Below the pieces are notes generated by a model. The model did not search any database. It had not been told where the DNA came from and was given only the letters and a program-made list of their open reading frames with translations. DNA of 64,000 bases from the NCBI GenBank assembly GCA_964390805.1, contig CAYMKL010000014.1, positions 706 through 64,705 of the forward strand. The letters are read 5' to 3'. Source of the DNA: an uncultured Anaerolineae bacterium. GTDB taxonomy: Bacteria; Chloroflexota; Anaerolineae; VGOG01. Of the stretch, positions 3,136-21,420 are shown piece by piece (positions within the stretch are counted from its first letter, which is position 1; every line of letters begins with the position of its first letter). The translations under genes and the position numbers were made by a program.

Positions 3136-3176
3136 CTGTCATCCACCAGCTATCTGCTATCAGCCATCTGCCAACT

Positions 3177-6100
3177 ATGCGAGAACGACGCAAAATCACC
3201 AATCTAGTACTGACCCTGGCGGCAGTGGGCCTGGGGTTCTTCGCCCAGAGCCGCTTTCGAACGGACGCCATTCGCGATGTCTTGATCCTCTACCTCGTGG
3301 CGGTTGTGCTCCTGGTCTATGCCAACCGCAGTCGAAGCTCAAAGTCCAAAGCTCGAAGCTCAAAGACCGACGCGGAGGACTCCCTGACCCTTCGACAAGC
3401 TCAGGATACCACGACACGGCTGGGGATCTCGACACGCCAGTTGGGCTGGGGCCCTTCGACCATAAGCGGAGCGACGCTCAGGGCAGGCCTGGCGTTGCTG
3501 GCCCTGGCTGGGGTCTGCATGCTTCTCTCGCTGCGTCTCTTCGGGCGTGGTGCTCCCACCACCCGCGCCTGGATCCTCTACCTGGCCAGCATTGCCCTCT
3601 TCGTAGCAGCCTTCTGGGCCATGGAATCCACCCCGAAGCAGTGGAACCTCCGACAACTTCTGTCATTCGACCCTTCGGCTATACTCAGGGCAGGCGGAAT
3701 TAAGACACTGGCTCGACTCTGGCCTCCTAAGATACAGACCGTTATCTTGATAGCGATCCTCATTGTCGCTGCTGTTGTGCGCCTCTACAACCTGGACTCC
3801 CTCCCCTTCGGCGTATGGTATGACGAGGCTGACAATGGCTTATGGGCGATTAGGATCATGGAGGATAGCAGTTATCGTCCCATCTACGTGCAGTCCACGA
3901 ACCTGCCAGCTCATTTCCTTTACCTCGTTGTTCTCTCATTCAAGCTCTTCGGTGTCAATGTATTGGCCATCCGCCTGATCACCGCCGGCTTAGGTGTATT
4001 GACAGTTGTTGCCGTCTATCTTCTGGTCGGGGAGATTCTCGATCATCGCCTGGCGCTTGTGGCGGCCTTCCTCTTGGCGATCTCCCGCTGGGATGTGAAC
4101 TTCAGTCGGTTGGGAATGCACGGAGTGAGCACCCCCCTCTTCACTGCCCTGGCTGCCTATTATCTTATCAAAGCGCTGCGCACCGAGCGGCATCTGGACT
4201 TTGCCTGGGGAGGTGTAGCTTTAGGCCTGGGACTTTGCTTCTATGCTCCTTTCCGTCTCTTCCCCTTTGTCATTGGGCTGTTCCTGGTCCACAAGTCAAT
4301 TGTCGAAAGGGGCTTCGTGAGGCGCTATTATCTGGGCATTCTGGTCTTCGTCTTAGCGGCTCTTCTGGTCTTTGCGCCGGTAGGTCAGTTCGCCTGGCAG
4401 CACCCCAAGACCTTCTTTGATCGCACCAGCGTCACCTCGATATTCAAGGATAAGACTCGCTCCCAGGCCATCGAAGCAGTGCGCCAGAGTGCCAAGCAGC
4501 ATCTCCTGATGTTCAACTATCGCGGAGATCCCAATGGCCGCCACAACCTGCCCGGCAAGCCGATGCTGGACTTTGCCACCTCTGCCCTCTTTGTCCTGGG
4601 TTTGGGCTACAGCCTATCCCGTTGGCGCCAGCCCAAATACTGGCTGCTAGCATTCTGGCTCTTGGTGATGCTGTGCGGGGGGATCCTCTCCCTGGAGTTC
4701 GAGGCTCCCCAATCCCTGCGAGCCATCGGCACCCTGCCCGCGGCCTACGTCCTGGCTTGTGTCCCCCTGTACCTAATCGTCACGGAATGGGATAAGTCAG
4801 TGGGGCGCTGGTCCTGGCTGCCAACTGCTGCCTGCTGCTTGCTGTTAACCCATATCGGCTGGAAGAACATGCACACCTACTTCCAGGTGCAGGCCAAAGA
4901 CTTCGCTGTCTGGAACGCTTTCTCCACCGCCGAGACCCTCACCGCCCGCCGCATGGCCGAAATGGGCCCTGATTACGACTTCCACGTCATTTCCCTCTAT
5001 CATAACCATCCTGTCCTGCGCTTTCTGGCCAGGAACATAACCCAGTACAAGCGCCTGGAGACCAACGCCACGATGCCCCTGCGGGAGAGCGGGGAGCGGG
5101 AGGCGGTGCTCTTCTTTGATCCTGAGAGGCGTCCCCTGTTCCTGGAGGCCAGGCGATACTATCCTGGGGGCACCTTTGAGGAGTTTCAACCTCCCCATGG
5201 CGGCCCCGCTGTGCTATACTCTTGCCAATTGACGCCTGGGCAGATCAAGGACATCCAGGGATTAGTGGGCCGTTATTACCAGGGAAGCGAGGGGGAAGGG
5301 AAGCCCATCCTGGAAAGCAAAGATGCCCAGCTTAGCTTCGACTGGGAAACCGAGCCGCCCTTGCCAGGGCCCTTCAGTGCCCGCTGGGAGGGAATACTCT
5401 ACGTCCCGCGATATGGACCCTATAACCTGGGCTTGGTGGCCCCTGCCGCAGGCCAGGTCTACCTGGATGAGAACGTCCTGCTAGAAGAGCCTGGCGAGGC
5501 CAAGCTTCTCCTGGCCAAAGGCAACCATGCCCTGCGAGTGGAAGCAGAAGACGGGGAAGGACGGGTGGATCTCTACTGGCAGCCACCGGGAGAGCCACCT
5601 AATCCGATTCCTCAACAGTTCCTGTATACCGCCCCGCCGGTGACCAACAACGGCCTCTTGGGCCGCTACTACCGGGGCCTGGATTGGGCGGGAGAGCCAG
5701 CCCTGGAACAGATTGACCCCTCCCTGGCTCTCTATTTTCACGTCACTCTGCTGAGTAGACCCTACACCGTAGAATGGACAGGCAAACTAGAAGCCCCTAC
5801 CGCTGGGAGCTACGGCTTCGGACTGGAGTCCATTGACGATTCCTGGCTCTATGTTGACGGCCAGCCGGTAGTGGAAACCCACGTGCCCAACCAGTACCGT
5901 GAGGGACAGATCAGCCTGACAGCGGGCTGGCACGACATCACCGTGCGTTATGTGGACAGGACCAACCATTCCCACATCAATCTTTATTGGAGACCCCCTG
6001 GCAGCGGGCAGCAGATCATACCCTCAGAACGGCTTCTTCCACCCCAGGGGGCTTACCCTGAACTCGTGGTGCATGCACCGACGGCTCCTCCTGTGCCCGC

Positions 6101-9561: not shown

Positions 9562-9798
9562 GCGACACCGACGCCAGGGGTGCAGCAACCCGTGGCCCTT
9601 GCCACCCCGCTGCCGGTAGAGACCCCCGTTGGTGAACTGGGCACTGGCCAGTTCATCCTCCAGTGGGGTAACCAGGGTTCCGCTGCGGGGCAGTTTGAGG
9701 AGCCGGCGGAGGTAGCAGTGGATGTGGAGGGCAACGTCTACGTGGCCGACCTGGGCAACAAGCGGGTGCAGAAGTTCGAAAGCAAGAGATTACAATGA
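9562..9798 (+). pseudogene. detached single NHL repeat in frame with ORF3 (truncated tail; ATG at 9580 would give a 72-aa ORF)
   Basis: Same frame as 6931-9561, separated only by TAG; encodes ...QWGNQGSAAGQFEEPAEVAVDVEGNVYVADLGNKRVQKFE; stop overlaps ATG of next gene (ATGA). Confidence 0.4.
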
Positions 9799-12700
9799 AG
9801 GAGCGAGCAACTTTCATTCTTCTTACCCTGGCTCTGGCGCTGGCCTTCACCGCTCAGCATTTCTTCTCCGCGGATAGAACCCATTACCGACAGGCGCTGC
9901 TCGTCTACGGCGTGGCCATCGTGGTGGTCTGGGTCTACGCTTTCTTAGAGGGGCACTGGTCGGGTTCGCTCCGGTCAGAAGAAGGCCAGTCTGCTCCGGC
10001 AGCGACCGACAATGAGCGCATCAATTTCACACCCCTTAGGTTTGCCCTGTTTTTTGCCTCTTTCCTGGCCCTGGCTTTCTCCCTGATGCTTCAACAAAGG
10101 AATAGCGCGTATCTGGGGCAGGTCATCTTCTGGCTGGTTGGCCTGGCCTTCTTGGTAGCCGCTTGCTGGCCTTACAGTACGCTAGGAGTTAGCTATTTCT
10201 GGCGCAAGTTGAAGTCCCACTGGGGCGAAATGTGCCTGGTGGTGCTGATCGTTGCGCTGGGATTCGCCCTGCGGGCCTATGGCCTAGATTCTATCCCTGG
10301 CGGCTTTCACGGTGACGAAGGCGAATGGGCGATGGATGCCGTGGCCATTATGGAGGGTAGATTGGTTCCTCCCTTCGGCACCGGCTGGGACAGGCACCCT
10401 AGCATGTTTTCATACCTGCAGGCCTTCACGATGAAGGTTTTTGGCATGAACGTAACGGGCGTGCGCATGCTCTCGGCCATAGCAGGCACGCTGACCTTGC
10501 TCGGCTTGTATCTGTTGGTCAGGCGGATGTTCGGTAGATGGGCAGCCATGGTGGCTGCTTTCCTGTTGGCGGTCTCCCACTGGCACATCCATTTCAGCCG
10601 CCTGGCCATGAACGACATTGAGGTCCCTTTGCTCACGATGCTGATCGTATACTTCCTGTATCGGGGGGTAGAGTCGCGGCGCCCCCTCGACTACTGCCTG
10701 TCGGGGATGAGCCTGGGACTTTGTTTCTATTTCGGCAACAAGTCGCATCTCCTTCCCCCCTTGATTGTCCTATTGTTCCTCTACCTGGTTATATTTAAGC
10801 GGGGCTTTCTCCGCCATCAGTGGCGCAACATCTTAGTCTTTCTCATTGCTACCCTCCTCACCTTCGCCCCCTTGGGGCTGTTCTATTCCCAGCGCAGATG
10901 GGAGGGCTTTGTGTTTGCCCGCTTGCAGAACCGCTCCATCTTCAACAACCTAGATCGCTTCTACGCAGTGTACGGCACTAAGGAAGTATGGGACGTGTTA
11001 CGCATCCAAACGGAGCGCACGGTGCTCCTTCTCAATTATTACACCGACGCCGGCATCTTCCTAACATTTACCCACGAGCCGCTGCTCGACTACTTCACCG
11101 CCGCAATCTATGTATTGGGCCTGGCCTACAGCCTGTATCATTGGCGGGAGGCGAAGCATGGGCTGCTCCTCTGCTGGTACGGTGTGACCCTCCAGGGCAG
11201 CATACTTTCCATTATTGCCCCGCAGGCCCATCGTATCGTGGGGATGATCCCTGTACCCTTTATCTTCGCTGCCATTGCCATTGAGCGTTTCCGGGGGGAG
11301 TTGGCCAAGGTGGCAAGTTGGCGCAAGGCCATCTACTCGGCCTTGCCCCTGGCCCTGTTCTTGGTCATTGTGGCCTACGTAAACATAGATGCCTACTTCG
11401 TCCGCTACGCCGAGAGGTGGCCCTGGTTGGACATTACGACCATGGCCAAGTACATCCGTGACCTGGGGCAGGATCACGCGATCTATTTCTTTGGGACGCC
11501 CCACACCTATGTCAAGCATGGTACCATACGCTTCATCGCTCACGGCGTAGACGGGGTGGACGTGGCGAACGCGGCCGACGTTGTGCCTGTCCGGCGAGAG
11601 GTTGACCGGAACGTGGCCTTTATATTGATGGGCAGCCATCTCCAGACCCTCTCCTTCATCGAGGCTTATTATCCCGGCGGCGTCTTGCGCAATTTCGAGG
11701 ATGCGAAAGGCAGAAAGCTATTCGCCGCCTATCTGGTTACGCAGCAAGAAGTGGCCAGTAATCAGGGTCTTGTGGCCCGCTACTACCGGGGTGCGGCCTG
11801 GGAGGGGGAGCCAGGGCTAACCAGGGAGGGAGTGGCGGTCTCGTTTGACCAGAGCGAAATCCGGTCCCCACCCTACAGTGTCCGATGGGAGGGCACCATA
11901 CATCTTCCCTCCCAAGGTAGTTACTTAATGGGATTGGACTCGACCCAACCCTCACGTCTGCTCATTGACGGCTCATTGTTGGTGAATAGTTCCGGCGGAC
12001 GACAGGCATCAGAGGCAACTTTGGCCGCTGGGCCTCATGCCATCACGGTGATGGGCATGGCTGCCAGCAGCGAAGACGCCATTGCCCTCTATTGGCGCCC
12101 TCCACACCAGGGTGAGAGAGTGGTTCCTAGCCATGTGCTGACGCCCAGGTCAGAGGCCAACGGCCTGCTGGGGAGTTACTACTCGAACAGCGATTGGGCA
12201 GGCGAGGCGGTTTTGCAGCGCATTGATCCTCTTATTTCCTTCCGATGGTTCCACCAGCCAAAGGCATCCCCCTTCTCCGTTCGCTGGGAGGGCTGGATTC
12301 GTGTGCCGGAGTCGGGCCGCTATACCTTCGAGACCTTCTCCAACGGCGAGGTTTGGCTCTCCATCGGTGGCCAATTGGTTCTCCATGACGATCAGCCGGT
12401 GGTGGAGAGATGGTATAGATCGGAGGCCGATCTGGTGGCTGGCTTGCACAAGCTGGAGCTTCGCTATCGCTATCTGTCTGGTTGGCGGTTGTTGGAACTC
12501 TATTGGACCAGGCCAGATGGGCTGAGGGAGTTGGTTCCAGCCGAGGGTTTCCTACCCAAGAGGGAAATCGTTCTGGCCTCCGGTATGGAGACGCAAGTTC
12601 CAGCGGCTGCAGGCTTGGCCTGGGGAACCCAAGGGGACGCTCCAGGCCAGTTCAATAACCCTCTAGACATCGCCGTTGATGACGAGGGCAACGTGTATGT

Positions 12701-13016
12701 GGCCGATAGCGGCAACCGCCGGGTGCAGGTCTTCGACGCGGCTGGCCGTTTTGTTGCCTACTGGCGAGGCGGCGATGAGAGGTTCGTCAGGCCTTCGGCC
12801 GTGGCTTGGGACGAGAGGGGATATGTCCTGGTGTTGGATTCTGGCACAGGGTGGATTCATCGTTTCACGGTTGATGGGCGTTTCCTGGAAAAGTTTGGTG
12901 GCCCTGCGGCTGGGGTTCTCTGCCCCTGCTGGCTGGCGGTGAATGAGGCTGGTCAGGTCTACGTGCTCGATAGCGGCCACAATCGGGTGCAGGTGTTGGA
13001 GCCGGCGGCCAGATAG
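9795..13016 (+). CDS. GT-C (ArnT/PMT-like) membrane glycosyltransferase-like protein fused to two PA14 domains and NHL repeats
   Basis: 1073 aa; HGDEGEW GT-C loop motif; PA14-like about 11765-12110 (GLVARYYRGAAWEGE) and 12160-12520 (GLLGSYYSNSDWAGE...); NHL repeats 12600-13013 (YVADSGNRRVQVFD, YVLDSGHNRVQVLE). Confidence 0.8.
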   Translation: MKERATFILLTLALALAFTAQHFFSADRTHYRQALLVYGVAIVVVWVYAFLEGHWSGSLRSEEGQSAPAATDNERINFTPLRFALFFASFLALAFSLMLQQRNSAYLGQVIFWLVGLAFLVAACWPYSTLGVSYFWRKLKSHWGEMCLVVLIVALGFALRAYGLDSIPGGFHGDEGEWAMDAVAIMEGRLVPPFGTGWDRHPSMFSYLQAFTMKVFGMNVTGVRMLSAIAGTLTLLGLYLLVRRMFGRWAAMVAAFLLAVSHWHIHFSRLAMNDIEVPLLTMLIVYFLYRGVESRRPLDYCLSGMSLGLCFYFGNKSHLLPPLIVLLFLYLVIFKRGFLRHQWRNILVFLIATLLTFAPLGLFYSQRRWEGFVFARLQNRSIFNNLDRFYAVYGTKEVWDVLRIQTERTVLLLNYYTDAGIFLTFTHEPLLDYFTAAIYVLGLAYSLYHWREAKHGLLLCWYGVTLQGSILSIIAPQAHRIVGMIPVPFIFAAIAIERFRGELAKVASWRKAIYSALPLALFLVIVAYVNIDAYFVRYAERWPWLDITTMAKYIRDLGQDHAIYFFGTPHTYVKHGTIRFIAHGVDGVDVANAADVVPVRREVDRNVAFILMGSHLQTLSFIEAYYPGGVLRNFEDAKGRKLFAAYLVTQQEVASNQGLVARYYRGAAWEGEPGLTREGVAVSFDQSEIRSPPYSVRWEGTIHLPSQGSYLMGLDSTQPSRLLIDGSLLVNSSGGRQASEATLAAGPHAITVMGMAASSEDAIALYWRPPHQGERVVPSHVLTPRSEANGLLGSYYSNSDWAGEAVLQRIDPLISFRWFHQPKASPFSVRWEGWIRVPESGRYTFETFSNGEVWLSIGGQLVLHDDQPVVERWYRSEADLVAGLHKLELRYRYLSGWRLLELYWTRPDGLRELVPAEGFLPKREIVLASGMETQVPAAAGLAWGTQGDAPGQFNNPLDIAVDDEGNVYVADSGNRRVQVFDAAGRFVAYWRGGDERFVRPSAVAWDERGYVLVLDSGTGWIHRFTVDGRFLEKFGGPAAGVLCPCWLAVNEAGQVYVLDSGHNRVQVLEPAAR

Positions 13017-13022
13017 CCAAAC

Positions 13023-13050
13023 TTGAAGAATCTCGCGAGTGTGGTATAAT
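13023..13050 (+). promoter_or_regulatory. sigma70-like promoter with extended -10 upstream of sucC
   Basis: TTGAAG 13023-13028, 16-nt spacer, TGgTATAAT 13042-13050; GAGGAGGAG RBS 13093-13101 then TTG start 13106. Confidence 0.45.
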
Positions 13051-13105
13051 TGGGGCGATCTTGGGTCCTGCCGATGGCGGGGCTTTGTTTTGAGGAGGAG
13101 AACCA

Positions 13106-14254
13106 TTGAAGCTTCAGGAGTATCAGTCCAAGCGCATCTTCGCTCAGCACGGCGTGCCTATCCCGGAGGGTGGAGTAGCTACCACCCCCCAACAGGCACG
13201 AGAGATCTCCGCGCGGCTGGGCAAGCCAGTGGTCGTAAAGGCCCAGGTGCTGGTGGGCGGCCGCGGGAAGGCGGGGGGCATCAAGCTGGCCGCGACGCCC
13301 GAGGAAGCGGAGGCCATCGCTACTCAAATCCTGTCCATGGATTTGAAGGGCTTGCCCGTTAGAAGCGTCCTCGTCGAGGAGGCTTCCGACATTGCCAGCG
13401 AGATCTACCTGGGAGTAGTCATTGACCGCGCTGCCAAGAGGCCGGTGATGATGGCCTCGTCCGAGGGCGGGGTCGAGATCGAGGAGGTGGCCCGCAGGAC
13501 TCCAGAGAAGATCATCAAGACCACTGTTGATCCCTTTCTGGGCTTGCAGGATTACCAGGTTCGAGAAGTGGCCTACGGAATCGGCCTGGGCAGCGACCTG
13601 ATACGGGGCTTCCTGAAAGTGGCCAAAGAGCTATATGCTGCTTTCACGAAGAGCGACGCCTCTCTGGCCGAGATCAATCCGCTGATCGTCACTGGTGACA
13701 GGACGTTGCTGGCCGTGGATGCCAAGATGATTTTGGACGACAACGCCCTCTTCCGCCACCCCGACCTGGCCGAGATGCGCAGCCTGGAAGAGGAGACGCC
13801 AGCGGAGCGCGAGGCGCGGGGCTACGGCATCAGCTACGTCCAACTCGATGGGATCGTTGGCTGTATGGTCAATGGGGCGGGGCTGGCTATGGCCACTATG
13901 GACCTCACCAAGCTACACGGTGGCGCACCGGCCAACTTCCTGGACATTGGCGGTGGGGCCAAAGCCGATAAGGTGGCCGCCGCCCTACGCCTCATCCTCT
14001 CGGACGAAAACGTCCAGGCTGTGCTGTTCAACATCTTCGGCGGCATCACCCGTTGCGACGAGGTAGCCAGGGGCATCCTGACCGCGTTGGAAGAAGTTGG
14101 GACCGATGTGCCCATGGTTGCTCGCCTGGTGGGTACGAATGAGGAGGAAGGCAGGGCAATCCTGGCTGAAGCCGATATGATCACCGCTGCTACTTTGGAG
14201 GAGGCGGCGCAAAAGGCGGTAGCTGCCGCGTCCACCTATGGAGAGCGAACATAA
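13106..14254 (+). CDS. sucC: succinyl-CoA synthetase (ADP-forming) beta subunit
   Basis: 382 aa; [20 protein letters not shown]...[21 protein letters not shown]-grasp N-terminus typical of SucC; TTG start with strong RBS. Confidence 0.92.
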
Positions 14255-14411
14255 CTCCGATTTCACTTTCACATGCACATCATCCCCCGGTGGTACGGCG
14301 ACGGGCTTCGTCTGGCCCGACCACCGGAGGTGAGAAGAACCATGCCCATCAAGGAAGCGGCAGCCAAGACCCGACGCGAGGTATCAGGGAATCAGGAAGA
14401 GGGGGCTGTCA

Positions 14412-15188
14412 ATGAAGGTTGATCTCAATTGTGACATGGGCGAGAGCTTCGGCCGCTATCGAATCGGCGCTGATGAGGCCATGATGCCGTACATCACCTC
14501 GGCCAACATCGCCTGCGGCTACCACGCGGGCGATCCGCTGGTGATGGACAGGACGGTTCGCTTGGCGGCGAAGCATGGGGTAGGAGTCGGCGCCCATCCC
14601 GGTTTCCCTGACCTCATGGGTTTTGGCCGTCGCGCCATGCAGCTCTCGCCTGAGGAGATCGAGAACTGCATCTTGTACCAGGTGGGGGCGTTGGCTGCCT
14701 TCGCCCGCGCCGCCGGTGTGGAATTGGTGCACGTGAAGCCCCACGGCGCTCTGTACAACATGGCGGCCAGAGACATGGAACTGGCCAGGGCCATCGTTCA
14801 TGGCATCGCACGCTTTGGCAAAGAACTCATCGTAGTTTGTCTGGCTGGCTCAACCATGATCGAGGCAGCAGAGGAGGCAGGCCTCCGTGTCGCTCAGGAG
14901 GGCTTCGCTGATCGGGCTTACAACCCGGATGGGACACTGCAATCCAGGAAGGAGCCCGGTTCCGTCATCCACGACCCGCAAGGGGCGGCTGAGCGGGCGG
15001 TGGCCATGGTGCGTGACAAAATAGTTGTCGCTCACACGGGCGAGGAGATACCCATCCACGTGGATACCATCTGCGTCCACGGCGACAGCCCAGGAGCCGT
15101 TCAAATCGCTAAGACCATTCGCGCAGAGCTGAAGGCGGCGGGGATCGAGGTGAAGCCCATGGAGAGTTTCGTCAGGAGGCTGATATGA
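14412..15188 (+). CDS. pxpA: 5-oxoprolinase subunit A (LamB/YcsF family)
   Basis: 258 aa; [14 protein letters not shown]...[13 protein letters not shown]...GAHPGFPD motifs of LamB/YcsF. Confidence 0.88.
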
Positions 15189-15409
15189 AGACCGCGGAAG
15201 TAGTGGCTACAAACGTTAAGACCCTACTGGAAAGCTTCGGTGATCAAGAGCTTGTCGTCATGCCTCTTTCCAGATACAGGGAGATAATAGAGATGATAGA
15301 GGACTTGGAGGATGCCATCGCTGTGAAAAGAGCGATGGAAACTTCAGAAAGGCTTCTCCCCTATGGTGAGGTTAGGGCACGCTTAGTAGCCAAAGGGATT
15401 TTAGAGTGA
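15185..15409 (+). CDS. type II antitoxin, Phd/YefM-like
   Basis: 74 aa, start overlaps pxpA stop (ATGA); [23 protein letters not shown] resembles Phd/YefM; immediately upstream of a RelE/ParE-like ORF with 4-nt overlap. Confidence 0.55.
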
Positions 15410-15675
15410 AATATGAGCTTTTCGTTGATGAGCGCATTGATGACAAACTCCTTCGCTTTCCTCGTGACGTGGTAAGGGGCATAGACAAGGCTCTTCGCGC
15501 TTTGAGAGATGACCCTCGACCGCGAGGCTGTAGAAAGATCAGAAGCACAAAGGATTGCTGGAGAGTTACAGTGCGGAAAGATTACCGCATATTGTACAGA
15601 GTTGATGATGAGGCAAAAGCAATTGAGGTGTATGAAATAACCCGCAAGGAGAAAGATACTTACCGAAGGCGATAG
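15406..15675 (+). CDS. type II toxin, RelE/ParE superfamily
   Basis: 89 aa; ...DDPRPRG..KIRSTKDCWRVTVRKDYRILYRVDDEAKAIEVYEITRKEKDTY matches RelE/ParE fold signature (YRI.Y.vd...i.v..i.hRk). Confidence 0.65.
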   Translation: MKYELFVDERIDDKLLRFPRDVVRGIDKALRALRDDPRPRGCRKIRSTKDCWRVTVRKDYRILYRVDDEAKAIEVYEITRKEKDTYRRR

Positions 15676-15729
15676 CTCATTGATAACCCATCAACTTCGG
15701 GAACTGGTGTTTCAGATCAGGAAGATCGA

Positions 15730-16416
15730 ATGACGTTTCGTGGCAAACTTCGCCTTCTTCTGGCTGGCGACTCGGCTTTGGTGGTCGAGTTCGGCGACGA
15801 GATAAGCCTGGAGGTGAACCGCAAGGTTCACGCCCTCGCTAGTGCCCTGGGGAAAGCTTCTCTCCTCGGCCTGGGGGAAGCCGTTCCCACCTATCGCTCT
15901 CTCCTGGTTCATTACGATCCCCTCCACCTTTCCTGCGACGAGGTCAAGGCTTTTGTCTCGGAGGTCCTCCAAGACTGCGAGGAGAAGCCCTTGCTCGAAC
16001 CCAGGCTGGTCGAGGTCCCGGTTGTCTACGGAGGTGAGTCTGGCCCAGACATGGAGTTCGTGGCCGAGCATAACGGCCTGTCGGTTGAGGAGGTGATAAG
16101 CCTCCACTCCGGTGCCACCTACACCGTTTACATGCTGGGTTTCGCACCTGGCTTCGCCTATCTGGGTGGGATGCCAGAGGCCATCGCCACCCCACGGTTG
16201 GAGACGCCTCACACTCTCGTGCCAGCGGGCTCAGCGGGCATCGCTGGAGAGCAGACGGGCATATACCCTATCGCTACCCCCGGTGGATGGCGTTTGATTG
16301 GCAGGACACCTCTTAAGCTTTTCGATCCGGAGCGCGACCCACCCACCCTGCTGAAAGCGGGGGATACAGTTCGCTTCGTGCCCATATCGGAAGGGGAGGA
16401 GCGAAGTGGCCCTTGA
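15730..16416 (+). CDS. pxpB: 5-oxoprolinase subunit B (KipI / allophanate hydrolase subunit 1 family)
   Basis: 228 aa; ...ALVVEFGDEISLEVNRKVHAL...PTYRSLLVHYDP typical of PxpB/KipI. Confidence 0.85.
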   Translation: MTFRGKLRLLLAGDSALVVEFGDEISLEVNRKVHALASALGKASLLGLGEAVPTYRSLLVHYDPLHLSCDEVKAFVSEVLQDCEEKPLLEPRLVEVPVVYGGESGPDMEFVAEHNGLSVEEVISLHSGATYTVYMLGFAPGFAYLGGMPEAIATPRLETPHTLVPAGSAGIAGEQTGIYPIATPGGWRLIGRTPLKLFDPERDPPTLLKAGDTVRFVPISEGEERSGP

Positions 16417-17374
16417 GGTTCTGGAAGGGGGAATGTTGACCACCGTCCAGGACCTGGGGCGCTACGGCTGCGAACGCTACGGCGTCCCGGTGGCTGGAGC
16501 GATGGACCCTTTCGCCTTGCAGGTGGCCAACGCCCTGGTGGGAAACAGCCCGGACGAGGCGGCTCTGGAGATAACCATCGTTGGTCCGACGCTTCGCGCT
16601 ACCGCGAGCTGCCTGATCGCTGTCACTGGTGCGGATCTGAATCTACGGGTGAACGGACGCCCGCTTCCTTCGTGGATGGCCGTGTTCGTGCGCAGGGGAT
16701 GGATCATCGAGTTCGGCGAACGGAAAAGGGGTTGCTGGGCTTATCTGGCCGTGGCGGGGGGAGTTGACGTGCCTCCCATCATGGGGTCGAAATCCACTTA
16801 CCTGCGGGGCGGCTTTGGCGGATTCCAGGGGCGCACTCTGAGAGAAGGCGATCTCATACCCATAGGCCAGACCGCTTCCCACCTCCCCAGTTTGGCGGGC
16901 AAGGAGTTCCCACCAGATCGAATCCCTGATTACAGTGACACGCCAGAATTACATGTCGTCCTCGGTCCTCAGGACGATTATTTCACCGAGGAGGGGATAG
17001 CGACCTTCCTTTCAAGCAAGTACCAGGTCAGCCCAACCTCGGATCGGATGGGCTATCGCCTCCAGGGAGCTGAGATAGTCCACCAGGGGCGGGCGGACAT
17101 CATCTCCGATGGGATTGCCCTGGGAGCAGTGCAGGTACCGGCTGATAAACAGCCCATCGTCATGATGGCCGACCGCCAGACGACGGGGGGATACCCTAAG
17201 ATCGCCACCGTCATCAGCGCCGACATACCCCTGCTGGCCCAATGCATGCCGGGTGGCAGCGCCGTCACTTTCAAGGCGATGACCGTCGAGGAGGCCCAAG
17301 GCCGCTATCGGGAGATGGTCAGAGCCCTGTTTCAAAATCCAAAATCCAAAGTTCAAATATCTAATACTCAATAG
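16406..17374 (+). CDS. pxpC: 5-oxoprolinase subunit C (KipA / allophanate hydrolase subunit 2 family)
   Basis: 322 aa; GGMLTTVQDLGRYGCERYGVPVAGAMD... typical PxpC; C-terminal FQNPKSKVQISNTQ is encoded by a heptamer array. Confidence 0.85.
   Translation: MALEVLEGGMLTTVQDLGRYGCERYGVPVAGAMDPFALQVANALVGNSPDEAALEITIVGPTLRATASCLIAVTGADLNLRVNGRPLPSWMAVFVRRGWIIEFGERKRGCWAYLAVAGGVDVPPIMGSKSTYLRGGFGGFQGRTLREGDLIPIGQTASHLPSLAGKEFPPDRIPDYSDTPELHVVLGPQDDYFTEEGIATFLSSKYQVSPTSDRMGYRLQGAEIVHQGRADIISDGIALGAVQVPADKQPIVMMADRQTTGGYPKIATVISADIPLLAQCMPGGSAVTFKAMTVEEAQGRYREMVRALFQNPKSKVQISNTQ
17331..17374. repeat. heptanucleotide tandem array (CAAAATC family) supplying the pxpC C-terminus and stop
   Basis: caaaatccaaaatccaaagttcaaatatctaatactcaatag. 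Confidence 0.6.
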
Positions 17375-17395
17375 ACACAGCAGGGGGTTTTCTAC

Positions 17396-18256
17396 ATGAG
17401 CATACTAGTTGATAAAAGCACTCGTCTTTTGGTTCAAGGCATCACCGGTCGCGAGGGGGAGTTTCACACCCGCCAGATGCTGGACTACGGCACCAAGGTG
17501 GTGGCTGGAGTAACGCCGGGCAAGGGTGGCATGGAGGTGGCTGGCGTGCCTGTCTTCAATACAGTCAAGGAAGCTGTTGAGACGACTGGCGCCAACACTT
17601 CCATCATCTATGTGCCATCCCGCTTTACGCCGGACGCCATTTACGAGGCCGCCGACGCGGGCATCCCGCTGATCGTGTGCATCACCGAGGGGATTCCCAC
17701 CCAGGACATGATCAAGGTGAAGGCGTATTTAGACCAGAGGGGAACGTGCCTGATTGGTCCCAACTGCCCCGGTTTGATCACCCCCGGCGAGGCCAAGGTG
17801 GGTATCATGTCCGGCCACATTCACAAGCCGGGGGCAGTAGGAGTGGTCTCCCGCAGTGGCACTCTGACCTACGAAGTGGTCTACGACCTGACCGCGCACG
17901 GTCTGGGCCAGTCCACCTGCGTGGGCATCGGCGGCGACCCCATTCCCGGCTCCGATTTCATAGACGTGCTGTCGCTATTCGAGGAAGACGCGGCCACCGA
18001 AAAAGTGGTGCTCATCGGCGAGATCGGAGGTACGGACGAGGAGCGGGCGGCCGATTTCATAGCCAGCAGAATGACCAAGCCTGTGGTCGCCTTCATCGCT
18101 GGAAGAACCGCCCCGCCGGGCAAACGCATGGGTCACGCTGGGGCCATCATCCAGGGCGGCACGGGCACGGCGGCGGAGAAGATCACGGCTCTGGAAGCGG
18201 TCGGCGTAAAGGTGGCCCGCTACCCCGGCGAGATACCTGGGTTGTTGCTTTCTTGA
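17396..18256 (+). CDS. sucD: succinyl-CoA synthetase alpha subunit
   Basis: 286 aa; [21 protein letters not shown]...[15 protein letters not shown]...SRSGTLTYE CoA-binding and ligase motifs. Confidence 0.92.
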
Positions 18257-18330
18257 CAAAATCATAGGAGGATGTTATACTTTTGCGCCAACAAGATGAG
18301 AACAACATCACGGCTTTCTGAAGGGACAGA

Positions 18331-18367
18331 CAGCGAGTTTGGCGGGGGATGAACTCCGGGGTTCCCC
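18331..18367 (+). terminator. rho-independent terminator candidate after sucD
   Basis: GGCGGGGGA (18331-18339) / TCCCCCGCC (18353-18361) 9-bp stem, 13-nt loop, followed by TTTCTT. Confidence 0.5.
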
Positions 18368-18417
18368 CGCCTTTCTTCGCCCAGTGAGCAGGAAAGGCGT
18401 GGCAACGGGAGGATGAA

Positions 18418-18690
18418 GTGAAGTATTGGCGAAAGCCACTGGACATCGAACAACAGGAGATCCCTCGTGGTCGAATCCACATTTTGAGGGAACGGTGCAA
18501 GGGTTGTGGCTTCTGCGTGGAATATTGCCCACGCCGTGTGCTGGAGGTATCAGAAGAGTTTAACACTAAAGGCTATCACCCGCCTCGCATCAAAGACGAG
18601 GCGGCTTGTGTCAACTGTGGTCTTTGCGAGATGCTCTGCCCTGAGTTTGCCATCTATTTGAATGAAGCGGGGGAGGTGCCGGTACCGTGA
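18418..18690 (+). CDS. korD: 2-oxoacid:ferredoxin oxidoreductase delta subunit (2x[4Fe-4S] ferredoxin)
   Basis: 90 aa; CKGCGFCVEYCP and CVNCGLCEMLCP motifs; GTG start after GGGAGG; overlaps korA start. Confidence 0.8.
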   Translation: MKYWRKPLDIEQQEIPRGRIHILRERCKGCGFCVEYCPRRVLEVSEEFNTKGYHPPRIKDEAACVNCGLCEMLCPEFAIYLNEAGEVPVP

Positions 18691-19847
18691 ACGGAGATGG
18701 GGTTCTGACTGGTGAGTTCTTCATGATGGGCGACATTGCCTGCGCCGAGGGGGCGATCTCCGCCGGTTGCCGTTTCTTTGGCGGCTACCCCATCACTCCG
18801 GCTACGGAAGTTGCCGAACGCATGGCTGCACGGATGCCCCAGGTGGGGGGGACCTATATCCAAATGGAGGATGAGCTGGCCTCCGTGATTGCTGTGCTGG
18901 GAGCTTCGTGGGGCGGGGTCAAAGCCATGACCGCTACTTCTGGCCCCGGTTTCAGTTTGATGATGGAGAACCTGGGCCTGGGGATCATGACCGAGACCCC
19001 TTGTGTGCTGGTTAATGTGCAGCGGGGTGGCCCGTCCACGGGATTGCCCACTCTGGTGGCACAGGGCGACATGATGCAAGCTCGCTGGGGCTCGCACGGC
19101 CCCTATGAGATCATCGCCCTGGCCCCCAGTTCCCCCCAAGAGCTTTTCGATTTGACCATCCGCGCCTTCAACCTCTCTGAGAAATACCGCACCCCGGTGC
19201 TGGTCATGACCGACGCTGAAGTGGGGCACATGACGGAGAAAGTAGTCATTCCCCCGCCAGAGGAGATCGAGACCTTCTCGCGCCGCAAGCCCACTGTTCC
19301 TCCCCATGAATATCTACCCTATAAGGCCGACGACGATCTCGTGCCCCCTATGGCCAACGCTGGCGAAGGCTACCGCTTTCACATAACGGGACTCACCCAC
19401 GACGATCGTGGCTACCCCGGCATGGACGCCAAAACCCAGGAGATATTGATCAATCGCCTGGTCGAGAAGATCAGAAGGAACAAGGACGATATAATTCAAC
19501 TCGAAGAGGATAGGTTAGAGGATGCTGAAGTAGTGGTCTGCTCCTATGGCATCTCCGCTCGCACGGCCCTCTGGCCGGTGGAGTTGGCCCGGCGGGAAGG
19601 CATAAAGGTGGGCACTTTGCGGCTGATTACGGTCTGGCCCTTTCCTGAGGAACAGATCAGGCAGTTGGCCAGGAAGGTGAAGGCTTTCGTTGTGCCAGAG
19701 CTGAACTATGGCCAGATCGTCCTGGAAGTGGAACGTTGCGCTGCTGGTCAGGCTGAGGCGATCCTGGTCCGCCATGCCGGCGGCGACATCCACAAGCCGG
19801 AGAAGGTACTGGAAGCGATCAGGAGGGCAGCAAACGGTGATCAGTAA
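18687..19847 (+). CDS. korA: 2-oxoacid (2-oxoglutarate/pyruvate):ferredoxin oxidoreductase alpha subunit
   Basis: 386 aa; ACAEGAISAGCRFFGGYPITPATE...TATSGPGFSLMMENLG typical KorA/PorA. Confidence 0.88.
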   Translation: MNGDGVLTGEFFMMGDIACAEGAISAGCRFFGGYPITPATEVAERMAARMPQVGGTYIQMEDELASVIAVLGASWGGVKAMTATSGPGFSLMMENLGLGIMTETPCVLVNVQRGGPSTGLPTLVAQGDMMQARWGSHGPYEIIALAPSSPQELFDLTIRAFNLSEKYRTPVLVMTDAEVGHMTEKVVIPPPEEIETFSRRKPTVPPHEYLPYKADDDLVPPMANAGEGYRFHITGLTHDDRGYPGMDAKTQEILINRLVEKIRRNKDDIIQLEEDRLEDAEVVVCSYGISARTALWPVELARREGIKVGTLRLITVWPFPEEQIRQLARKVKAFVVPELNYGQIVLEVERCAAGQAEAILVRHAGGDIHKPEKVLEAIRRAANGDQ

Positions 19848-19857
19848 TCAGTGTTAG
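19837..19857. repeat. heptamer array (ATCAGTG/AGTAATC) at korA 3' end
   Basis: ggtgatcagtaatcagtgtta. Confidence 0.5.
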
Positions 19858-19870
19858 GAGGTGAATAAGA

Positions 19871-20776
19871 ATGGCGAACAAGAGCAACAAACAGGCAATA
19901 ATCTCGAAACCCGAAACTCGAACCCCAAAACTCGAAACCCCAAATCCGAAACCCGACAGTCATCCTATGGACTATCTGCTGCGAGAGGATCGTCTGCCCC
20001 ACATTTGGTGCTCTGGGTGTGGCATCGGCGTGGCTTTGACCTGTTTTATCAAGGCCCTCCAGAAATCGGAGCTGGATTTGGACAAGGTGGCGGTGGTCTC
20101 AGGTATCGGCTGCACGGGGCGGGTGGCTGGCTACGTCAAGCTCGACTCCTTCCACACTACTCACGGGCGAGCGATCCCCTTCGCCACCGGGCTGAAGCTG
20201 GCCAATCCTGAGCTCAAAGTGGTGGTCTTCAGTGGCGACGGCGACCTGATCGCCATCGGCGGCAATCACCTCATACACGCCGCTCGCCGCAACTTAGATG
20301 TGGCCGTCATTTGCGTCAACAACTTCAATTACGGCATGACCGGTGGGCAGGTGGGACCGACCACGCCTCCAGGGGCCAGGACCAGCACTTCGCCCTACGG
20401 CTGCTTCGAGCACCCTTTCAACCTTCCCTACCTGGCTGCGGCTAGCGGAGCGGTGTACGTGGCCCGCTGGACGGCCCTTCACGTACGACGCCTGGAGAAG
20501 TCTATCCTCAATGCACTGCACAAAAGGGGGTTTAGTTTTGTGGAAGTCATCTCCCCTTGTCCCACTTTGTATGGTCGCTGGAACAAACAGCGCACGGGCC
20601 TGGCCCAGATGCAGTATTACCATGACCGGGGTGTCATAAAGCACGGCATTGATCCCAAAGAAGCTGACATTGATCTGCATGGGGAGATCATCGAAGGAGT
20701 GTTTGTGGACATCGAGAAGCCCACTTTTCTCGACTTCTGCAACGCGGCATTAACCAAAGGCATCAGTGATCAGTGA
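19871..20776 (+). CDS. korB: 2-oxoacid:ferredoxin oxidoreductase beta subunit (TPP-binding)
   Basis: 301 aa; WCSGCGIG...GIGCTGR...FSGDGD TPP motif; AGGAGGTG RBS before 19871; first 32 aa are encoded by a heptamer array. Confidence 0.88.
   Translation: MANKSNKQAIISKPETRTPKLETPNPKPDSHPMDYLLREDRLPHIWCSGCGIGVALTCFIKALQKSELDLDKVAVVSGIGCTGRVAGYVKLDSFHTTHGRAIPFATGLKLANPELKVVVFSGDGDLIAIGGNHLIHAARRNLDVAVICVNNFNYGMTGGQVGPTTPPGARTSTSPYGCFEHPFNLPYLAAASGAVYVARWTALHVRRLEKSILNALHKRGFSFVEVISPCPTLYGRWNKQRTGLAQMQYYHDRGVIKHGIDPKEADIDLHGEIIEGVFVDIEKPTFLDFCNAALTKGISDQ
19906..19957. repeat. heptanucleotide tandem array (CGAAACC family) encoding the N-terminal extension of KorB
   Basis: aaacccgaaactcgaaccccaaaactcgaaaccccaaatccgaaacccgac encodes KPETRTPKLETPNPKPD; reverse-complement family at 42030-42066. 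Confidence 0.6.
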
Positions 20777-20818
20777 TTAGTAAACAATGCCCGCTGATTA
20801 CTGATTACTCGTAACTGG
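20761..20818. repeat. inverted heptamer arrays (ATCAGTG ... TGATTAC) forming a hairpin between korB and korC
   Basis: catcagtgatcagtgattagta...ctgattactgattactcgtaactgg. Confidence 0.6.
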
Positions 20819-20834
20819 GCAAACCGGGGGAGTC

Positions 20835-21392
20835 ATGAGTCGAACAGAGATACGCTTAACTGGCTTTGGGGGGCAGGGCATCATTCTCTCAGGTTACATA
20901 ATAGGCAAAGCGGCGGCCATTCACGACAAGAAACAGGCCACTTTCACCCAGAGCTATGGCCCTGAGTCGCGAGGAGGAGCTTGTAGCGCTCAGTTGGTTA
21001 TCTCTGATGAGCACATTAGCTACCCTCATCTCACCGACCCGTCCATCTTAGTCGTGATGTCGCAGGAGGCCTACAACAAGTATGCTCCAACTCTGGGAGA
21101 AAAGGCTCTGCTCATCGTTGACGAGGACCTGGTGGAGATGGGCGAGGTAGCTGGCGATGTGAAGCTGCTCTCGGTCCCGGCTACGCGCCTGGCCGAGGAG
21201 CTGGGGCGGAAGATCGTGGCCAACATCGTCATGCTGGGCTTCTTCGCCGCTGTGACCGACGTGGTCTCCGTAGAGGCCATGCGGGAGGCAGTTCTTACCT
21301 CAGTCCCCAAAGGAACCGAGGAGTTGAACTCGAAGGCTTTTCAGAAGGGGTACGAGTACGGATCAGTGAACAGTAATCAGTGGACAGTCTGA
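20835..21392 (+). CDS. korC: 2-oxoacid:ferredoxin oxidoreductase gamma subunit
   Basis: 185 aa; IRLTGFGGQGIILSGYIIGKAA...QSYGPESRGG typical KorC/PorC. Confidence 0.88.
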   Translation: MSRTEIRLTGFGGQGIILSGYIIGKAAAIHDKKQATFTQSYGPESRGGACSAQLVISDEHISYPHLTDPSILVVMSQEAYNKYAPTLGEKALLIVDEDLVEMGEVAGDVKLLSVPATRLAEELGRKIVANIVMLGFFAAVTDVVSVEAMREAVLTSVPKGTEELNSKAFQKGYEYGSVNSNQWTV

Positions 21393-21420
21393 TTACTGAT
21401 TACTGGTAACTGGTAACTGT
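21361..21420. repeat. inverted heptamer arrays (ATCAGTG/TGATTAC/TGGTAAC) hairpin between korC and downstream gene
   Basis: gatcagtgaacagtaatcagtggacagtctgattactgattactggtaactggtaactg. Confidence 0.6.

Follow-up and report, generated by a model that had tools for sequence, protein, structure and literature searches.

A 64,000-nt stretch of DNA from an uncultured Anaerolineae bacterium (the window) carries, between sucC and sucD, what is probably one compacted allele of a variable slot specific to a clade of uncultured Anaerolineae (Chloroflexota). The occupants of this slot, a toxin–antitoxin (TA) pair set among 5-oxoprolinase genes, seem likely to form an arrangement that is old, has been inherited vertically and has eroded repeatedly, not a recent insertion. 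On the plus strand, sucC, pxpA, the antitoxin gene, the toxin gene, pxpB, pxpC and sucD follow one another at distances of 157, −4, −4, 54, −11 and 21 nt, with korDABG beyond. Two independent metagenome assemblies (L001 and L002; L numbers denote related loci) contain the structure with 100% identity, so it is not an assembly artefact. Open reading frames and matches to Pfam and NCBI family profiles bear out the gene positions and identities in the original prediction, and the parting of sucC from sucD by pxpA, the TA pair and pxpBC is real.

13023..13050, +, sucC operon promoter, TTGAAG-16-TGTGGTATAAT, extended −10 (consensus scan)
13063..13092, +, GC-rich 5′ leader hairpin with T-run, between the sucC promoter and the sucC Shine–Dalgarno site; sequence conserved
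13106..14254, +, sucC, ADP-forming succinate-CoA ligase beta subunit (NF001913, 524 bits versus cut-off 370; Pfam ATP-grasp_2 and Ligase_CoA)
14255..14422, +, HIT-family pseudogene remnant, last ~55 codons; directly follows the sucC stop and runs 11 nt into pxpA
14412..15188, +, pxpA, 5-oxoprolinase subunit A (PF03746, E = 5e-109; NF003814, 398 bits)
15185..15409, +, antitoxin, divergent Phd/YefM / RelB-like, 74 aa, translationally coupled to pxpA (ATGA)
15406..15675, +, RelE/ParE-superfamily toxin, 89 aa, GTG start (PF05016, 33.4 bits versus cut-off 23)
15676..15729, +, conserved TA 3′ spacer with the pxpB ribosome-binding site
15730..16416, +, pxpB, 5-oxoprolinase subunit B (TIGR00370, 246 bits)
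16406..17374, +, pxpC, 5-oxoprolinase subunit C (TIGR00724, 315 bits)
17396..18256, +, sucD, succinate-CoA ligase alpha subunit (NF004230, 457 bits versus cut-off 336)
18253..18281, +, second promoter, presumed to serve korDABG; TTGACA-17-TGTTATACT, overlaps the sucD stop
18341..18377, +, GC hairpin GGCGGGGGA..TCCCCCGCC (stem 18341–18371) plus TTTCTT, in the ~130-nt korD leader
18418..21392, +, korD-like ferredoxin, korA, korB and korG (2-oxoglutarate:ferredoxin oxidoreductase)

The sucC gene starts with TTG, where L004 and L066 have ATG. Matches to Pfam Fer4, POR_N and PFOR_II identify korD and korA; TPP_enzyme_C and POR are taken from annotation precomputed for the identical contig L001. Synteny of korDABG with sucD extends throughout the clade.

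A variable slot between sucC and sucD

As the original prediction held, sucC and sucD are normally neighbours, lying no more than 150 nt apart in 53 of 70 related loci. Their separation is nonetheless clade-wide (about 40 related loci compared): a HIT gene stands between them in every relative with SucC identity of at least 74% except L013, in which the two are adjacent. The pair was thus already split by HIT in these relatives, contrary to the proposal that one insertion interrupted a canonical sucCD. On gene order among the relatives, the basal state is sucC-HIT-sucD-korDABG, and the split would be older than the arrival of the pxp genes and the TA pair. The window retains the trace of this gene: the 157 nt between sucC and pxpA encode the C-terminal 55 codons of HIT (translation containing HFHMHIIPRWYGDG), 76–93% identical to the C termini of the intact 138–151-aa HIT genes (PF01230) found there in relatives. 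About 300 bp of the 5′ part is deleted, with a breakpoint between window positions 14254 and 14261 that corresponds to L068 1436–1737. Cargo varies by species and includes pxpABC, a DHDPS-like gene, a creatininase-like gene and two types of TA pair. Slot content differs even between sisters (L103 versus L086, 95% bootstrap; L048 versus L003, 100%), in a sucC tree whose backbone bootstraps are 2–58%.

Alignment with these alleles points to three deletions in the window lineage: the ~300 bp of HIT, the DHDPS-like gene, and 59 nt between pxpA and the antitoxin gene. In L093–L095, pxpA ends in SFV-TAG and is followed by a 68-nt spacer and the antitoxin gene, and 59 nt of this segment are absent from the window (junction TTCGTC/AGGAGG); the spacer of L102 measures 129 nt and contains TTGACA-17-TACAAA. 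The 59-nt deletion appears to have taken out the pxpA stop codon along with the upstream spacer that belonged to the TA pair. In consequence, pxpA now ends within the antitoxin ribosome-binding region, its last four codons (RRLI) and stop being read from the former TA 5′ leader, where relatives end in SFL or SFV and a stop at 254 aa; the ATGA overlap would have been created by the same event, and the TA pair left dependent on the sucC promoter. At the other end, homology of pxpC to relatives stops at about 17317, and its C-terminal tail is encoded by a heptamer-repeat spacer (CAAAATC in tandem at 17333–17350) at the place of the missing DHDPS-like gene; L068 and L103 have the order pxpC-DHDPS-sucD. 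The pxpB N terminus is two codons longer than in TA-less alleles.

Identity, age and erosion of the TA pair

The assignment of the toxin as RelE-like stands on its PF05016 match and on full-length alignment with E. coli RelE (4v7k, E = 8e-5, residues 2–84). Relative to RelE, the toxin has T in place of K54, K in place of R81 and a conservative K52→R change, and it retains R61 and the C-terminal tyrosine; against TIGR02385 (RelE_StbE) it scores 24, under the cut-off of 27.9. The antitoxin can be called Phd/YefM-type by transitive homology only: its direct Pfam match is weak (E = 0.074; PF02604, 13 bits versus cut-off 29.8), and, among 36 remote homologues from a profile search, 27 match PF02604 and 25 match PF18506. 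Its family is tiny, with 50 representatives at E ≤ 1e-3 among 1.84 billion proteins, and in the loci compared its ORF is always directly upstream of the toxin. Of the ATGA overlaps predicted at both TA junctions, the one joining the pxpA stop to the antitoxin start is present, whereas the antitoxin/toxin junction reads GTGA, with a GTG start. The 54-nt spacer between toxin and pxpB has homologues in L005, L048, L068, L086, L093–L096, L102 and L103. Taken together, the pair looks like an ordinary RelE/Phd-type module in an unusual and well-documented evolutionary context.

All close homologues looked up (antitoxin at least 76%, toxin at least 73% identity) lie in this slot or adjoin pxp genes, and the nearest relative elsewhere (toxin 62%, antitoxin 49%) is a stand-alone pair in a different context. 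Synteny shows the arrangement to be largely common to the relatives: pxpA-antitoxin-toxin-pxpBC recurs in L093–L097, L102, L103, L105 and L110, and L068 has a decayed version of it. Synonymous divergence agrees, since dS for the TA genes (0.41–0.54) matches that for sucC and sucD (0.36–0.53) in the same genome pairs and pxpA dS tracks sucC dS, in conflict with the recent insertion suggested earlier. Over three lineages with intact pairs, dN/dS of 0.17–0.26 for the antitoxin and 0.15–0.20 for the toxin (0.15–0.26 overall) indicates purifying selection on both genes. The toxin has a GC content of 47% against 61% in the flanks, and the pair stays at 46–48% in every lineage despite flank-like divergence; long residence alone does not explain this persistently low value.

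Erosion is recurrent. In sister lineages the toxin has been deleted independently at least six times, with differing junctions (L068, L090–L092, L093, L103, L108 and L109), the antitoxin ORF remaining intact in five of the six lineages, and the whole pair is lost in L003, L004 and L068. In L005, about six pxpB codons and about 11 pxpC codons flank a deletion just 3′ of an intact pair. L004 and L093 are placed differently by the pxpA and pxpB trees, and alleles without the TA pair branch among those that have it, which indicates recombination around the TA site. Because the TA-less pxp alleles L004, L007 and L008 have a clean TGATG or TAATG pxpA/pxpB junction with no scar, and because the sucC backbone is weak, the course of events may have been either one insertion or loss with recombination.

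Transcription, proposed history and alternatives

The promoter-like site predicted upstream of sucC is present and near-invariant in 11 relatives despite differing upstream sequence. The hairpin in the sucC leader has an unremarkable folding z-score (−0.87), and the outgroup loci L010–L012 carry a hairpin and T-run of different sequence at the equivalent place. This promoter is not the only one, as had been supposed: the site at 18253–18281 (TTGACA-17-TATACT with TG) matches the consensus at 11 of 12 positions, better than the sucC promoter, and is kept in 11 of 11 close relatives, three of which have extra sequence inserted between the motif and the sucD stop. Nor does the hairpin taken for a terminator close the unit, as it lies downstream of this conserved kor promoter, in the korD leader; its stem is conserved without compensatory changes and matches no Rfam family. 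Inside the sucC–sucD block, a simple scan for sigma-70 consensus sites found no consensus promoter and no terminator was seen, although weak internal promoters, for example at the pxpA 3′ end, may escape such a scan. Given the shared strand, the short gaps and this lack of internal signals, the most economical interpretation is that the conserved sucC promoter drives co-transcription of all seven genes, and to that extent the predicted single transcript survives.

We therefore favour, with reasonable confidence, an old block that was inherited vertically, compacted in this allele, transcribed as an operon and held in place by addiction; its co-transcription, toxin activity and neutralisation we infer from sequence. 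The accessory block, comprising pxpA, the wedged-in TA pair, pxpBC and originally a DHDPS-like gene, would have been acquired long ago; homologous recombination would since have rearranged it, and many small deletions shortened it. Now without a promoter of its own, the TA pair would be translated by coupling from pxpA to antitoxin to toxin. PxpABC would convert 5-oxoproline to glutamate, and thence 2-oxoglutarate would be supplied to the adjacent KorDABG and SucCD. This functional theme is backed by the neighbours of pxpA-TA-pxpBC in L105 (a Liv-type ABC transporter, D-glutamate cyclase and a Na+-decarboxylase) and by the finding that 5-oxoproline supports growth via glutamate through PxpABC (PMC13274462). 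The pair would persist mainly by addiction, not by metabolic work, as cells that lost the antitoxin but still contained the toxin would die, and decay in sister lineages, toxin first, is what addiction would predict. Addiction leaves unexplained the deletion of pxp genes around the pair that is supposed to stabilise them.

Co-option of the pair, or at least of the antitoxin, for a host function tied to the operon is unlikely, even taking two versions jointly: that shut-off of the sucC operon would deplete the labile antitoxin and free RelE to arrest translation, or that the antitoxin would regulate the operon. Such a role would suit the TA–pxp linkage kept despite divergence (toxin 73%, pxpB 76% identity), the extra genes around the unit in L102 and L105, the purifying selection, the window pair's reliance on operon transcription after losing its leader, and the antitoxins that outlast their toxins. 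However, the recurrent toxin losses and complete TA losses show that the pair is dispensable, and since the toxin losses sit at tree tips, the orphan antitoxins may simply await decay. No operator-like palindrome is common to the operon promoter and the TA-bearing alleles, and the pair matches no PADLOC defence model.

That the pair is an inert relic, its toxin inactivated by substitution and both ORFs merely carried on the operon mRNA, we consider improbable. The changes at K54 and R81, the subthreshold TIGR02385 score and the visible loss of the toxin in many sister lineages would be expected of a relic, but low toxin dN/dS, two full-length ORFs with intact coupling, the retained R61 and tyrosine and the conservative change at K52 would not, and loss of the toxin by deletion with the antitoxin spared is a pattern expected only if the toxin was active. 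Least credible, and already largely refuted by synteny and dS, is a single, relatively recent mobile insertion into a coupled sucCD of this genome, for although adjacency in most related loci and the foreign composition of the TA segment favour it, the HIT split is shared by relatives, many species-level lineages carry pxp and TA at this very site, the window allele has itself arisen by deletion (truncated HIT; DHDPS-like gene and 59-nt spacer lost), and neither a transposase or integrase nor terminal inverted repeats or a target-site duplication mark the edges of the block.

Comparison with known systems

The pair resembles E. coli relBE in its toxin and in an upstream antitoxin gene overlapping the toxin gene by 4 nt. 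It differs in having a divergent Phd/YefM or PF18506-like antitoxin in place of the ribbon-helix-helix RelB, in substitutions at catalytic K54 and R81, and in its fusion into a metabolic operon without a promoter or operator of its own. In yefM-yoeB, a Phd/YefM antitoxin accompanies a RelE-superfamily toxin, and the window pair combines the same classes as modules of the yefM-yoeB or phd-doc type, although its antitoxin scores below the PF02604 cut-off and belongs to a tiny family. TA modules are known in housekeeping operons and as stabilisers of chromosomal islands (E. coli relA-mazEF-mazG, superintegron cassette TAs and SXT mosAT), where addiction explains persistence and flanking DNA is lost more easily than the TA pair. 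Here, too, a chromosomal type II module is found among, and would be co-transcribed with, non-TA genes, would owe its persistence to addiction and is less easily lost than its flanks; unlike those cases, it lies within the subunit genes of one enzyme, is kept there across species, and has failed to prevent loss of flanking pxp genes in L005, L048 and L086.

The subunits and their A-B-C order are those of C. glutamicum pxpTABC (PMC13274462), C. difficile kipOTIA and B. subtilis pxpA..kipI-kipA, so the order pxpA then pxpBC is not atypical, as had been thought. In kipOTIA (pxpA-transporter-pxpB-pxpC), an unrelated gene likewise comes between pxpA and pxpBC in a single polycistronic unit (10.1101/2024.05.01.592088), but in the window the intervening genes are a TA pair and not a transporter, the unit sits between sucC and sucD, and no PxpR/KipR-type regulator is adjacent. 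Recurrent toxin loss with retention of the antitoxin also recalls the orphan antitoxins reported from Enterobacteriaceae pangenomes (PMC7192599, PMC10790755); compared with those accounts, the sucC–sucD slot allows the events to be put in order at one orthologous locus, with junctions at sequence level.

Gene content between sucC and sucD

All seven open reading frames (ORFs) of the original prediction are found on the plus strand, in the families and at the coordinates assigned to them, with the kor genes following:

13106–14254, plus strand: sucC, with a TTG start (ATG at the same position in the related loci L004 and L066)
14412–15188, plus strand: pxpA, 5-oxoprolinase subunit A
15185–15409, plus strand: antitoxin ORF, 74 amino acids
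15406–15675, plus strand: RelE/ParE-superfamily toxin ORF, 89 amino acids
15730–16416, plus strand: pxpB
16406–17374, plus strand: pxpC
17396–18256, plus strand: sucD
18418–21392, downstream of sucD: ferredoxin-like korD, korA, korB and korG

The sucC and sucD products belong to the ADP-forming succinate–CoA ligase SucCD, with both equivalog models above cut-off (NF001913, 524 against 370; NF004230, 457 against 336). The three subunit families of prokaryotic 5-oxoprolinase are present and clustered: PxpA scores 398 against a cut-off of 226 (NF003814), PxpB 246 against 146 (TIGR00370) and PxpC 315 against 230 (TIGR00724); the PxpC equivalog model NF045499 gives 260, under its cut-off of 500. 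From family membership and the gene context of the related locus L105, we infer that PxpABC of the window would convert 5-oxoproline to glutamate in an ATP-dependent reaction. The toxin–antitoxin (TA) segment has a GC content of 47% (GC3 46–52%), against about 61% (GC3 68–75%) in every neighbouring gene. An assembly chimera was ruled out, as two independent metagenome assemblies (loci L001 and L002) are 100% identical to the window in this structure and many relatives share the architecture. Upstream of sucC, the clade carries at least three tandem paralogous giant ORFs (870–1250 amino acids; 9795–13016 and further upstream in the window, 1–8605 in L001) that combine PMT_2 glycosyltransferase, PA14 and NHL repeats.

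We scanned for SucC in one genome per species, which gave 80 loci, the closest of them (84–91% identity) in metagenome-assembled genomes of uncultured Anaerolineae or Chloroflexota. Window proteins were mapped to all loci, ORFs were listed and extra ORFs were run against Pfam. As the original prediction held, sucC and sucD are normally adjacent, lying within 150 nt of each other in 53 of 70 loci. The 17 split loci comprise 11 of this clade, 4 from Ardenticatenales with an M20 peptidase gene and 2 with small gaps only. In the Ardenticatenales (L020, L026, L028 and L038), an M20/M28 peptidase gene of 447–450 amino acids independently occupies the position between sucC and sucD, so that the split arose in at least two Chloroflexota lineages.

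Contents of the slot between sucC and sucD in relatives of the window (AT, antitoxin; TOX, toxin; HIT, DHDPS and creatininase, genes of or like those families)
HIT only (sucC-HIT-sucD-kor): L003, L009, L066 and the 74–75% outgroup L010–L012
HIT-pxpABC-DHDPS: L004
HIT-pxpABC-creatininase-DHDPS: L008
HIT-(UPF0175 and DUF3368 pair)-pxpABC: L007
HIT-AT-TOX: L048
HIT-AT-TOX-DHDPS: L005, L083–L089, L104, L106, L107
HIT-pxpA-AT-pxpBC-DHDPS: L103
HIT-(Liv-type ABC transporter)-pxpA-AT-TOX-pxpBC-(D-glutamate cyclase)-(Na+-decarboxylase genes): L105

These contents indicate that the sucC/sucD split is clade-wide and predates the pxp and TA cargo. Two relatives carry a second, unrelated TA-like pair between HIT and pxpA, consisting of a UPF0175 antitoxin and a DUF3368/PIN-like toxin (L007, 11613–12409; L093, 870–1666). 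L105 surrounds pxpA-TA-pxpBC with a LivK/H/M/G/F-type ABC transporter, D-glutamate cyclase (PF07286) and subunits of a Na+-translocating decarboxylase (1206–6048 and 9284–13258), and no sucD lies within 5 kb. The flanking genes of L105 suggest a 5-oxoproline/glutamate catabolic island.

Deletion scars and decay of the cargo

The 157-nt stretch after sucC, previously read as intergenic, encodes the final third of a protein of the HIT family, up to a stop at 14422. This remnant (14255–14422) retains the HxHxHxx motif and the C-terminal tail of an otherwise incomplete HIT domain and has no Pfam match; intact orthologues of 138–151 amino acids (PF01230, E 3e-28) stand at the identical position in relatives. 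The first ~300 bp of the gene are missing, with a breakpoint between window positions 14254 and 14261 that corresponds to 1436–1737 of the related locus L068. Judged from its sequence, the window copy is a pseudogene.

A second scar joins pxpA to the antitoxin. In L093–L095, a 68-nt spacer separates the end of pxpA (..ESFV-TAG) from the ATG of the antitoxin; the corresponding spacer of L102 measures 129 nt. The window junction reads TTCGTC joined to AGGAGGCTGATATG and lacks 59 nt relative to L093–L095, a loss that takes out the TAG stop and the greater part of the spacer. As a result, the pxpA frame runs through the antitoxin Shine–Dalgarno sequence (tail RRLI*) to a stop inside the antitoxin start codon. 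A single 59-nt deletion thus explains the 258-residue length of pxpA (254 residues elsewhere), the ATGA overlap and the lack of room for a TA promoter. Of the ATGA overlaps predicted at both junctions of the pair, the one between pxpA and the antitoxin is as described, whereas the antitoxin stop and toxin start share GTGA, with a GTG start. The toxin lies 54 nt from pxpB. In the TA-less loci L004, L007 and L008, pxpA and pxpB overlap tightly (TGATG or TAATG) and PxpB begins MYGEP or MYDEP; most TA-bearing alleles have M(T/M)(F/S)Y.. at this point, and the window has MTFRG.

Homology of the window pxpC to other pxpC genes stops at ~17317, and the rest of its tail is translated from a heptamer-repeat spacer (CAAAATC, 2.6 copies) that adjoins sucD where L068 and L103 retain a DHDPS-like gene. 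Tandem heptanucleotide repeats (CAAAATC, CGAAACC, ATCAGTG, CTGATTA and others) recur at gene junctions (window 17333–17350, 19905–19956, 20762–20809 and 21362–21419; L003 11157–11182; L103 9829–9850), and some are translated, forming the tail of pxpC and the N-terminus of korB. In kind they are similar to the STRR repeats of cyanobacteria, and they could be substrates of the frequent junction deletions. Around the TA cassette, a search for inverted repeats and target-site duplications returned only short, chance-level repeats, and the sucC–sucD block encodes neither a transposase nor an integrase. As a practical warning, what was taken for a "gap" and a "terminator" in this operon, like its odd C-termini, is in each case the footprint of small deletions.

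Sister lineages show how the cargo decays. In L005, an intact TA pair is followed directly by the start of pxpB (~6 codons) joined to the end of pxpC (~11 codons), and then by DHDPS; the pxp genes were deleted around a TA pair that survived. In six cases the toxin was removed by deletions with differing end-points, five of which left an intact antitoxin ORF.

Toxin losses in related loci
L068: toxin deleted, antitoxin N-terminus also lost
L090–L092: toxin cut off after ~55 codons
L093: toxin deleted
L103: toxin deleted
L108: 11 toxin codons remain
L109: toxin deleted

Small insertions that resemble MITEs and carry terminal inverted repeats adjoin the decayed toxin genes in L068 (2771–2903, repeat GGTGCCTGGCACTT / AAGTGCCAGGCACC) and L108 (~3600–3770, between antitoxin and DHDPS).

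Cargo has also been reshuffled. The sucC tree pairs sister loci with unlike cargo (L103 and L086, 95% bootstrap; L048 and L003, 100%). L004 and L093 take different positions in the pxpA tree and in the pxpB tree, and TA-less alleles are nested among TA-bearing ones. This conflict indicates that homologous recombination across the TA site shuffles TA presence and absence. The neighbour-joining sucC tree leaves its backbone unresolved, and no full ordering of the slot events is therefore claimed.

Identity and age of the toxin–antitoxin pair

The toxin belongs to the RelE/ParE superfamily (PF05016, 33.4 bits against a cut-off of 23, E 6.7e-8) and falls just under the cut-off of the RelE/StbE subfamily model TIGR02385 (24.0 bits against 27.9). 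It aligns end to end with Escherichia coli RelE (4v7k; phmmer, E 8e-5). Measured against the E. coli catalytic set K52, K54, R61, R81 and Y87, it keeps R61 and the C-terminal tyrosine and carries K52→R, K54→T and R81→K. The gene arrangement is that of a type II TA system, with the antitoxin directly upstream, a GTGA overlap and the pair conserved together; it recurs in L005, L048, L083–L089, L095–L097, L102, L104–L107 and L110. Indirect evidence that the toxin would inhibit growth and be neutralised by a labile antitoxin comes from the toxin deletions, five of six of which spare the antitoxin, and from the dN/dS of 0.15–0.26.

The antitoxin itself has no significant Pfam match (PF02604, 13.3 bits against a cut-off of 29.8, E 0.074). 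Among 36 remote homologues, 27 match PF02604 (Phd/YefM; best E 8.7e-8) and 25 match PF18506 (RelB-like), and "Phd/YefM-like" therefore applies by transitivity. The family is very small: 5.8 billion proteins yield 28 clusters with at least 75% identity, and a profile search of 1.84 billion representatives retrieved 50 at E ≤ 1e-3. Its AlphaFold2 model is all-helical (pLDDT 79), and a Foldseek search of the PDB gave nothing below E 6.8. Among PDB sequences, profile searches had no match better than E 0.3, and a single-sequence search returned only spurious TALE-repeat matches. PADLOC yielded no match for the toxin, a spurious weak Type I specificity-subunit match for the antitoxin (E 1.8e-4) and only a generic HIT (ThsC) match for the HIT gene.

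The original prediction raised the possibility of a recent insertion, and synteny and divergence in relatives speak against it. All readable contexts of antitoxin homologues at 76% identity or more, or toxin homologues at 73% or more, are the sucC–sucD slot or a position beside pxp genes. The nearest pair elsewhere (toxin 62%, antitoxin 49% identity) is free-standing among small ORFs in another context.

Synonymous divergence and selection on cargo and flanks
Antitoxin and toxin, window/L005/L048 pairs: dS 0.41–0.54; dN/dS 0.15–0.26
sucC and sucD, window/L005/L048 pairs: dS 0.36–0.53; dN/dS 0.08–0.15
pxpA against sucC, window–L004: dS 0.44 against 0.46; dN/dS 0.11 against 0.11
pxpA against sucC, window–L007: dS 0.77 against 0.66; dN/dS 0.13 against 0.10

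The TA pair and the pxp genes have thus co-diverged with their housekeeping flanks; neither is a recent arrival, and the split itself is older than the cargo. Gene context and substitution patterns mark the TA pair as an old, locus-bound module subject to selection. The TA genes stay at 46–48% GC in all lineages (window 15185–15675; orthologues in L005, L048, L083 and L086) despite flanks of 61% GC. No amelioration is visible in them, although their synonymous divergence equals that of the flanks.

Transcription, proposed roles and known systems

Strand, spacing, translational coupling and the lack of internal consensus signals in a promoter and terminator scan point to one polycistronic mRNA, which would run from the conserved promoter at 13023–13050 through sucD. 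In the sucC leader (13057–13105), a 10-bp GC hairpin and T-run begin only ~6 nt past the predicted transcription start and may act as a 5′ stabiliser or attenuator; a hairpin and T-run of different sequence occupy the same position in the outgroup L010–L012.

The claim of a sole promoter and a sole terminator does not hold. The consensus scan finds a second, better promoter-like site at 18253–18281 (TTGACA-17-TATACT with an upstream TG), kept in 11 of 11 close relatives, in three of which unrelated insertions separate it from the sucD stop; korDABG would thus have an additional promoter of its own. The supposed terminator, a GC hairpin with TTTCTT (18341–18377), lies ~55–90 nt downstream of this site within a conserved ~130-nt korD leader. 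It may still block read-through from sucD, yet to call it the terminator of the seven-gene unit would be too simple. Within the promoter and leader region (18253–18420), the leader combines the GC hairpin and U-run with a pyrimidine tract able to pair with the korD Shine–Dalgarno and start region, and may be an attenuator or translational control element. It matches no Rfam family, and RNAalifold found only one covarying pair. An Rfam E-value scan of 12800–18600 gave a spurious Prion_pknot inside sucD as its sole match, and folding of the TA 3′ spacer, sucC leader and kor leader was not distinctive (z-scores −0.4 to −0.9).

No promoter-like site appears at the window's antitoxin start in the consensus scan, and the autoregulated promoter/operator of a type II TA system was not found upstream of the antitoxin. 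The 68-nt spacer of L093 likewise shows no site in a sigma-70 scan; the sole candidate TA promoter is TTGACA-17-TACAAA in the L102 spacer, spotted by eye only. The window pair has lost its own leader and would ride on operon transcription and pxpA translation.

We consider this structural and evolutionary account of the locus probably correct and rank the functional account lower. Glutamate formed from 5-oxoproline by PxpABC would provide 2-oxoglutarate for KorDABG and succinyl-CoA for SucCD. This theme is supported by L105, where genes for a transporter, a D-glutamate cyclase and a decarboxylase surround the unit. The TA pair would consist of a RelE-type translation-dependent mRNA nuclease and a Phd-type inhibitor, kept by addiction in that deletions taking the antitoxin first would be lethal. 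Addiction would account for losses that begin with the toxin as well as for pairs that outlast the deletion of their neighbours. A far more doubtful idea is that the pair has been domesticated for control of the TCA/glutamate catabolic operon, as a growth brake or through an antitoxin that doubles as operon regulator. The brake is suggested by the cross-species retention of the pair at the pxpA–pxpB junction and by its present supply from the sucC promoter only: once operon transcription stopped, antitoxin supply would stop and RelE would halt translation. The value of the locus lies in its comparative series. Across ~40 related genomes, a single orthologous slot displays a TA module intact, leader-less and fused to a metabolic gene (the window), toxin-deleted (at least six independent events), fully decayed, and outliving its host genes. 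It forms a clean natural data set on the persistence and death of chromosomal TA modules, and also shows accessory 5-oxoproline/glutamate catabolic genes accreting beside product-consuming enzymes.

SucCD, PxpABC and a RelE/Phd-type TA pair are ordinary parts; their context is unusual and well documented. The pair resembles yefM-yoeB-type hybrids in uniting a Phd-class antitoxin with a RelE-superfamily toxin. TA modules are known inside housekeeping operons, as in relA-mazEF-mazG, and as stabilisers of genomic islands. Orphan antitoxins are common (PMC7192599, PMC10790755). Among the matches listed in a full-text search for papers naming both TA systems and 5-oxoprolinase, no title or abstract opening describes a TA pair within pxp genes. 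Glutamate production from 5-oxoproline by PxpABC is described (PMC13274462), and the pxpA-first order, thought atypical in the original prediction, is documented in pxpTABC (PMC13274462) and kipOTIA (10.1101/2024.05.01.592088). In kipOTIA, too, an unrelated gene parts pxpA from pxpBC within one transcript (10.1101/2024.05.01.592088).
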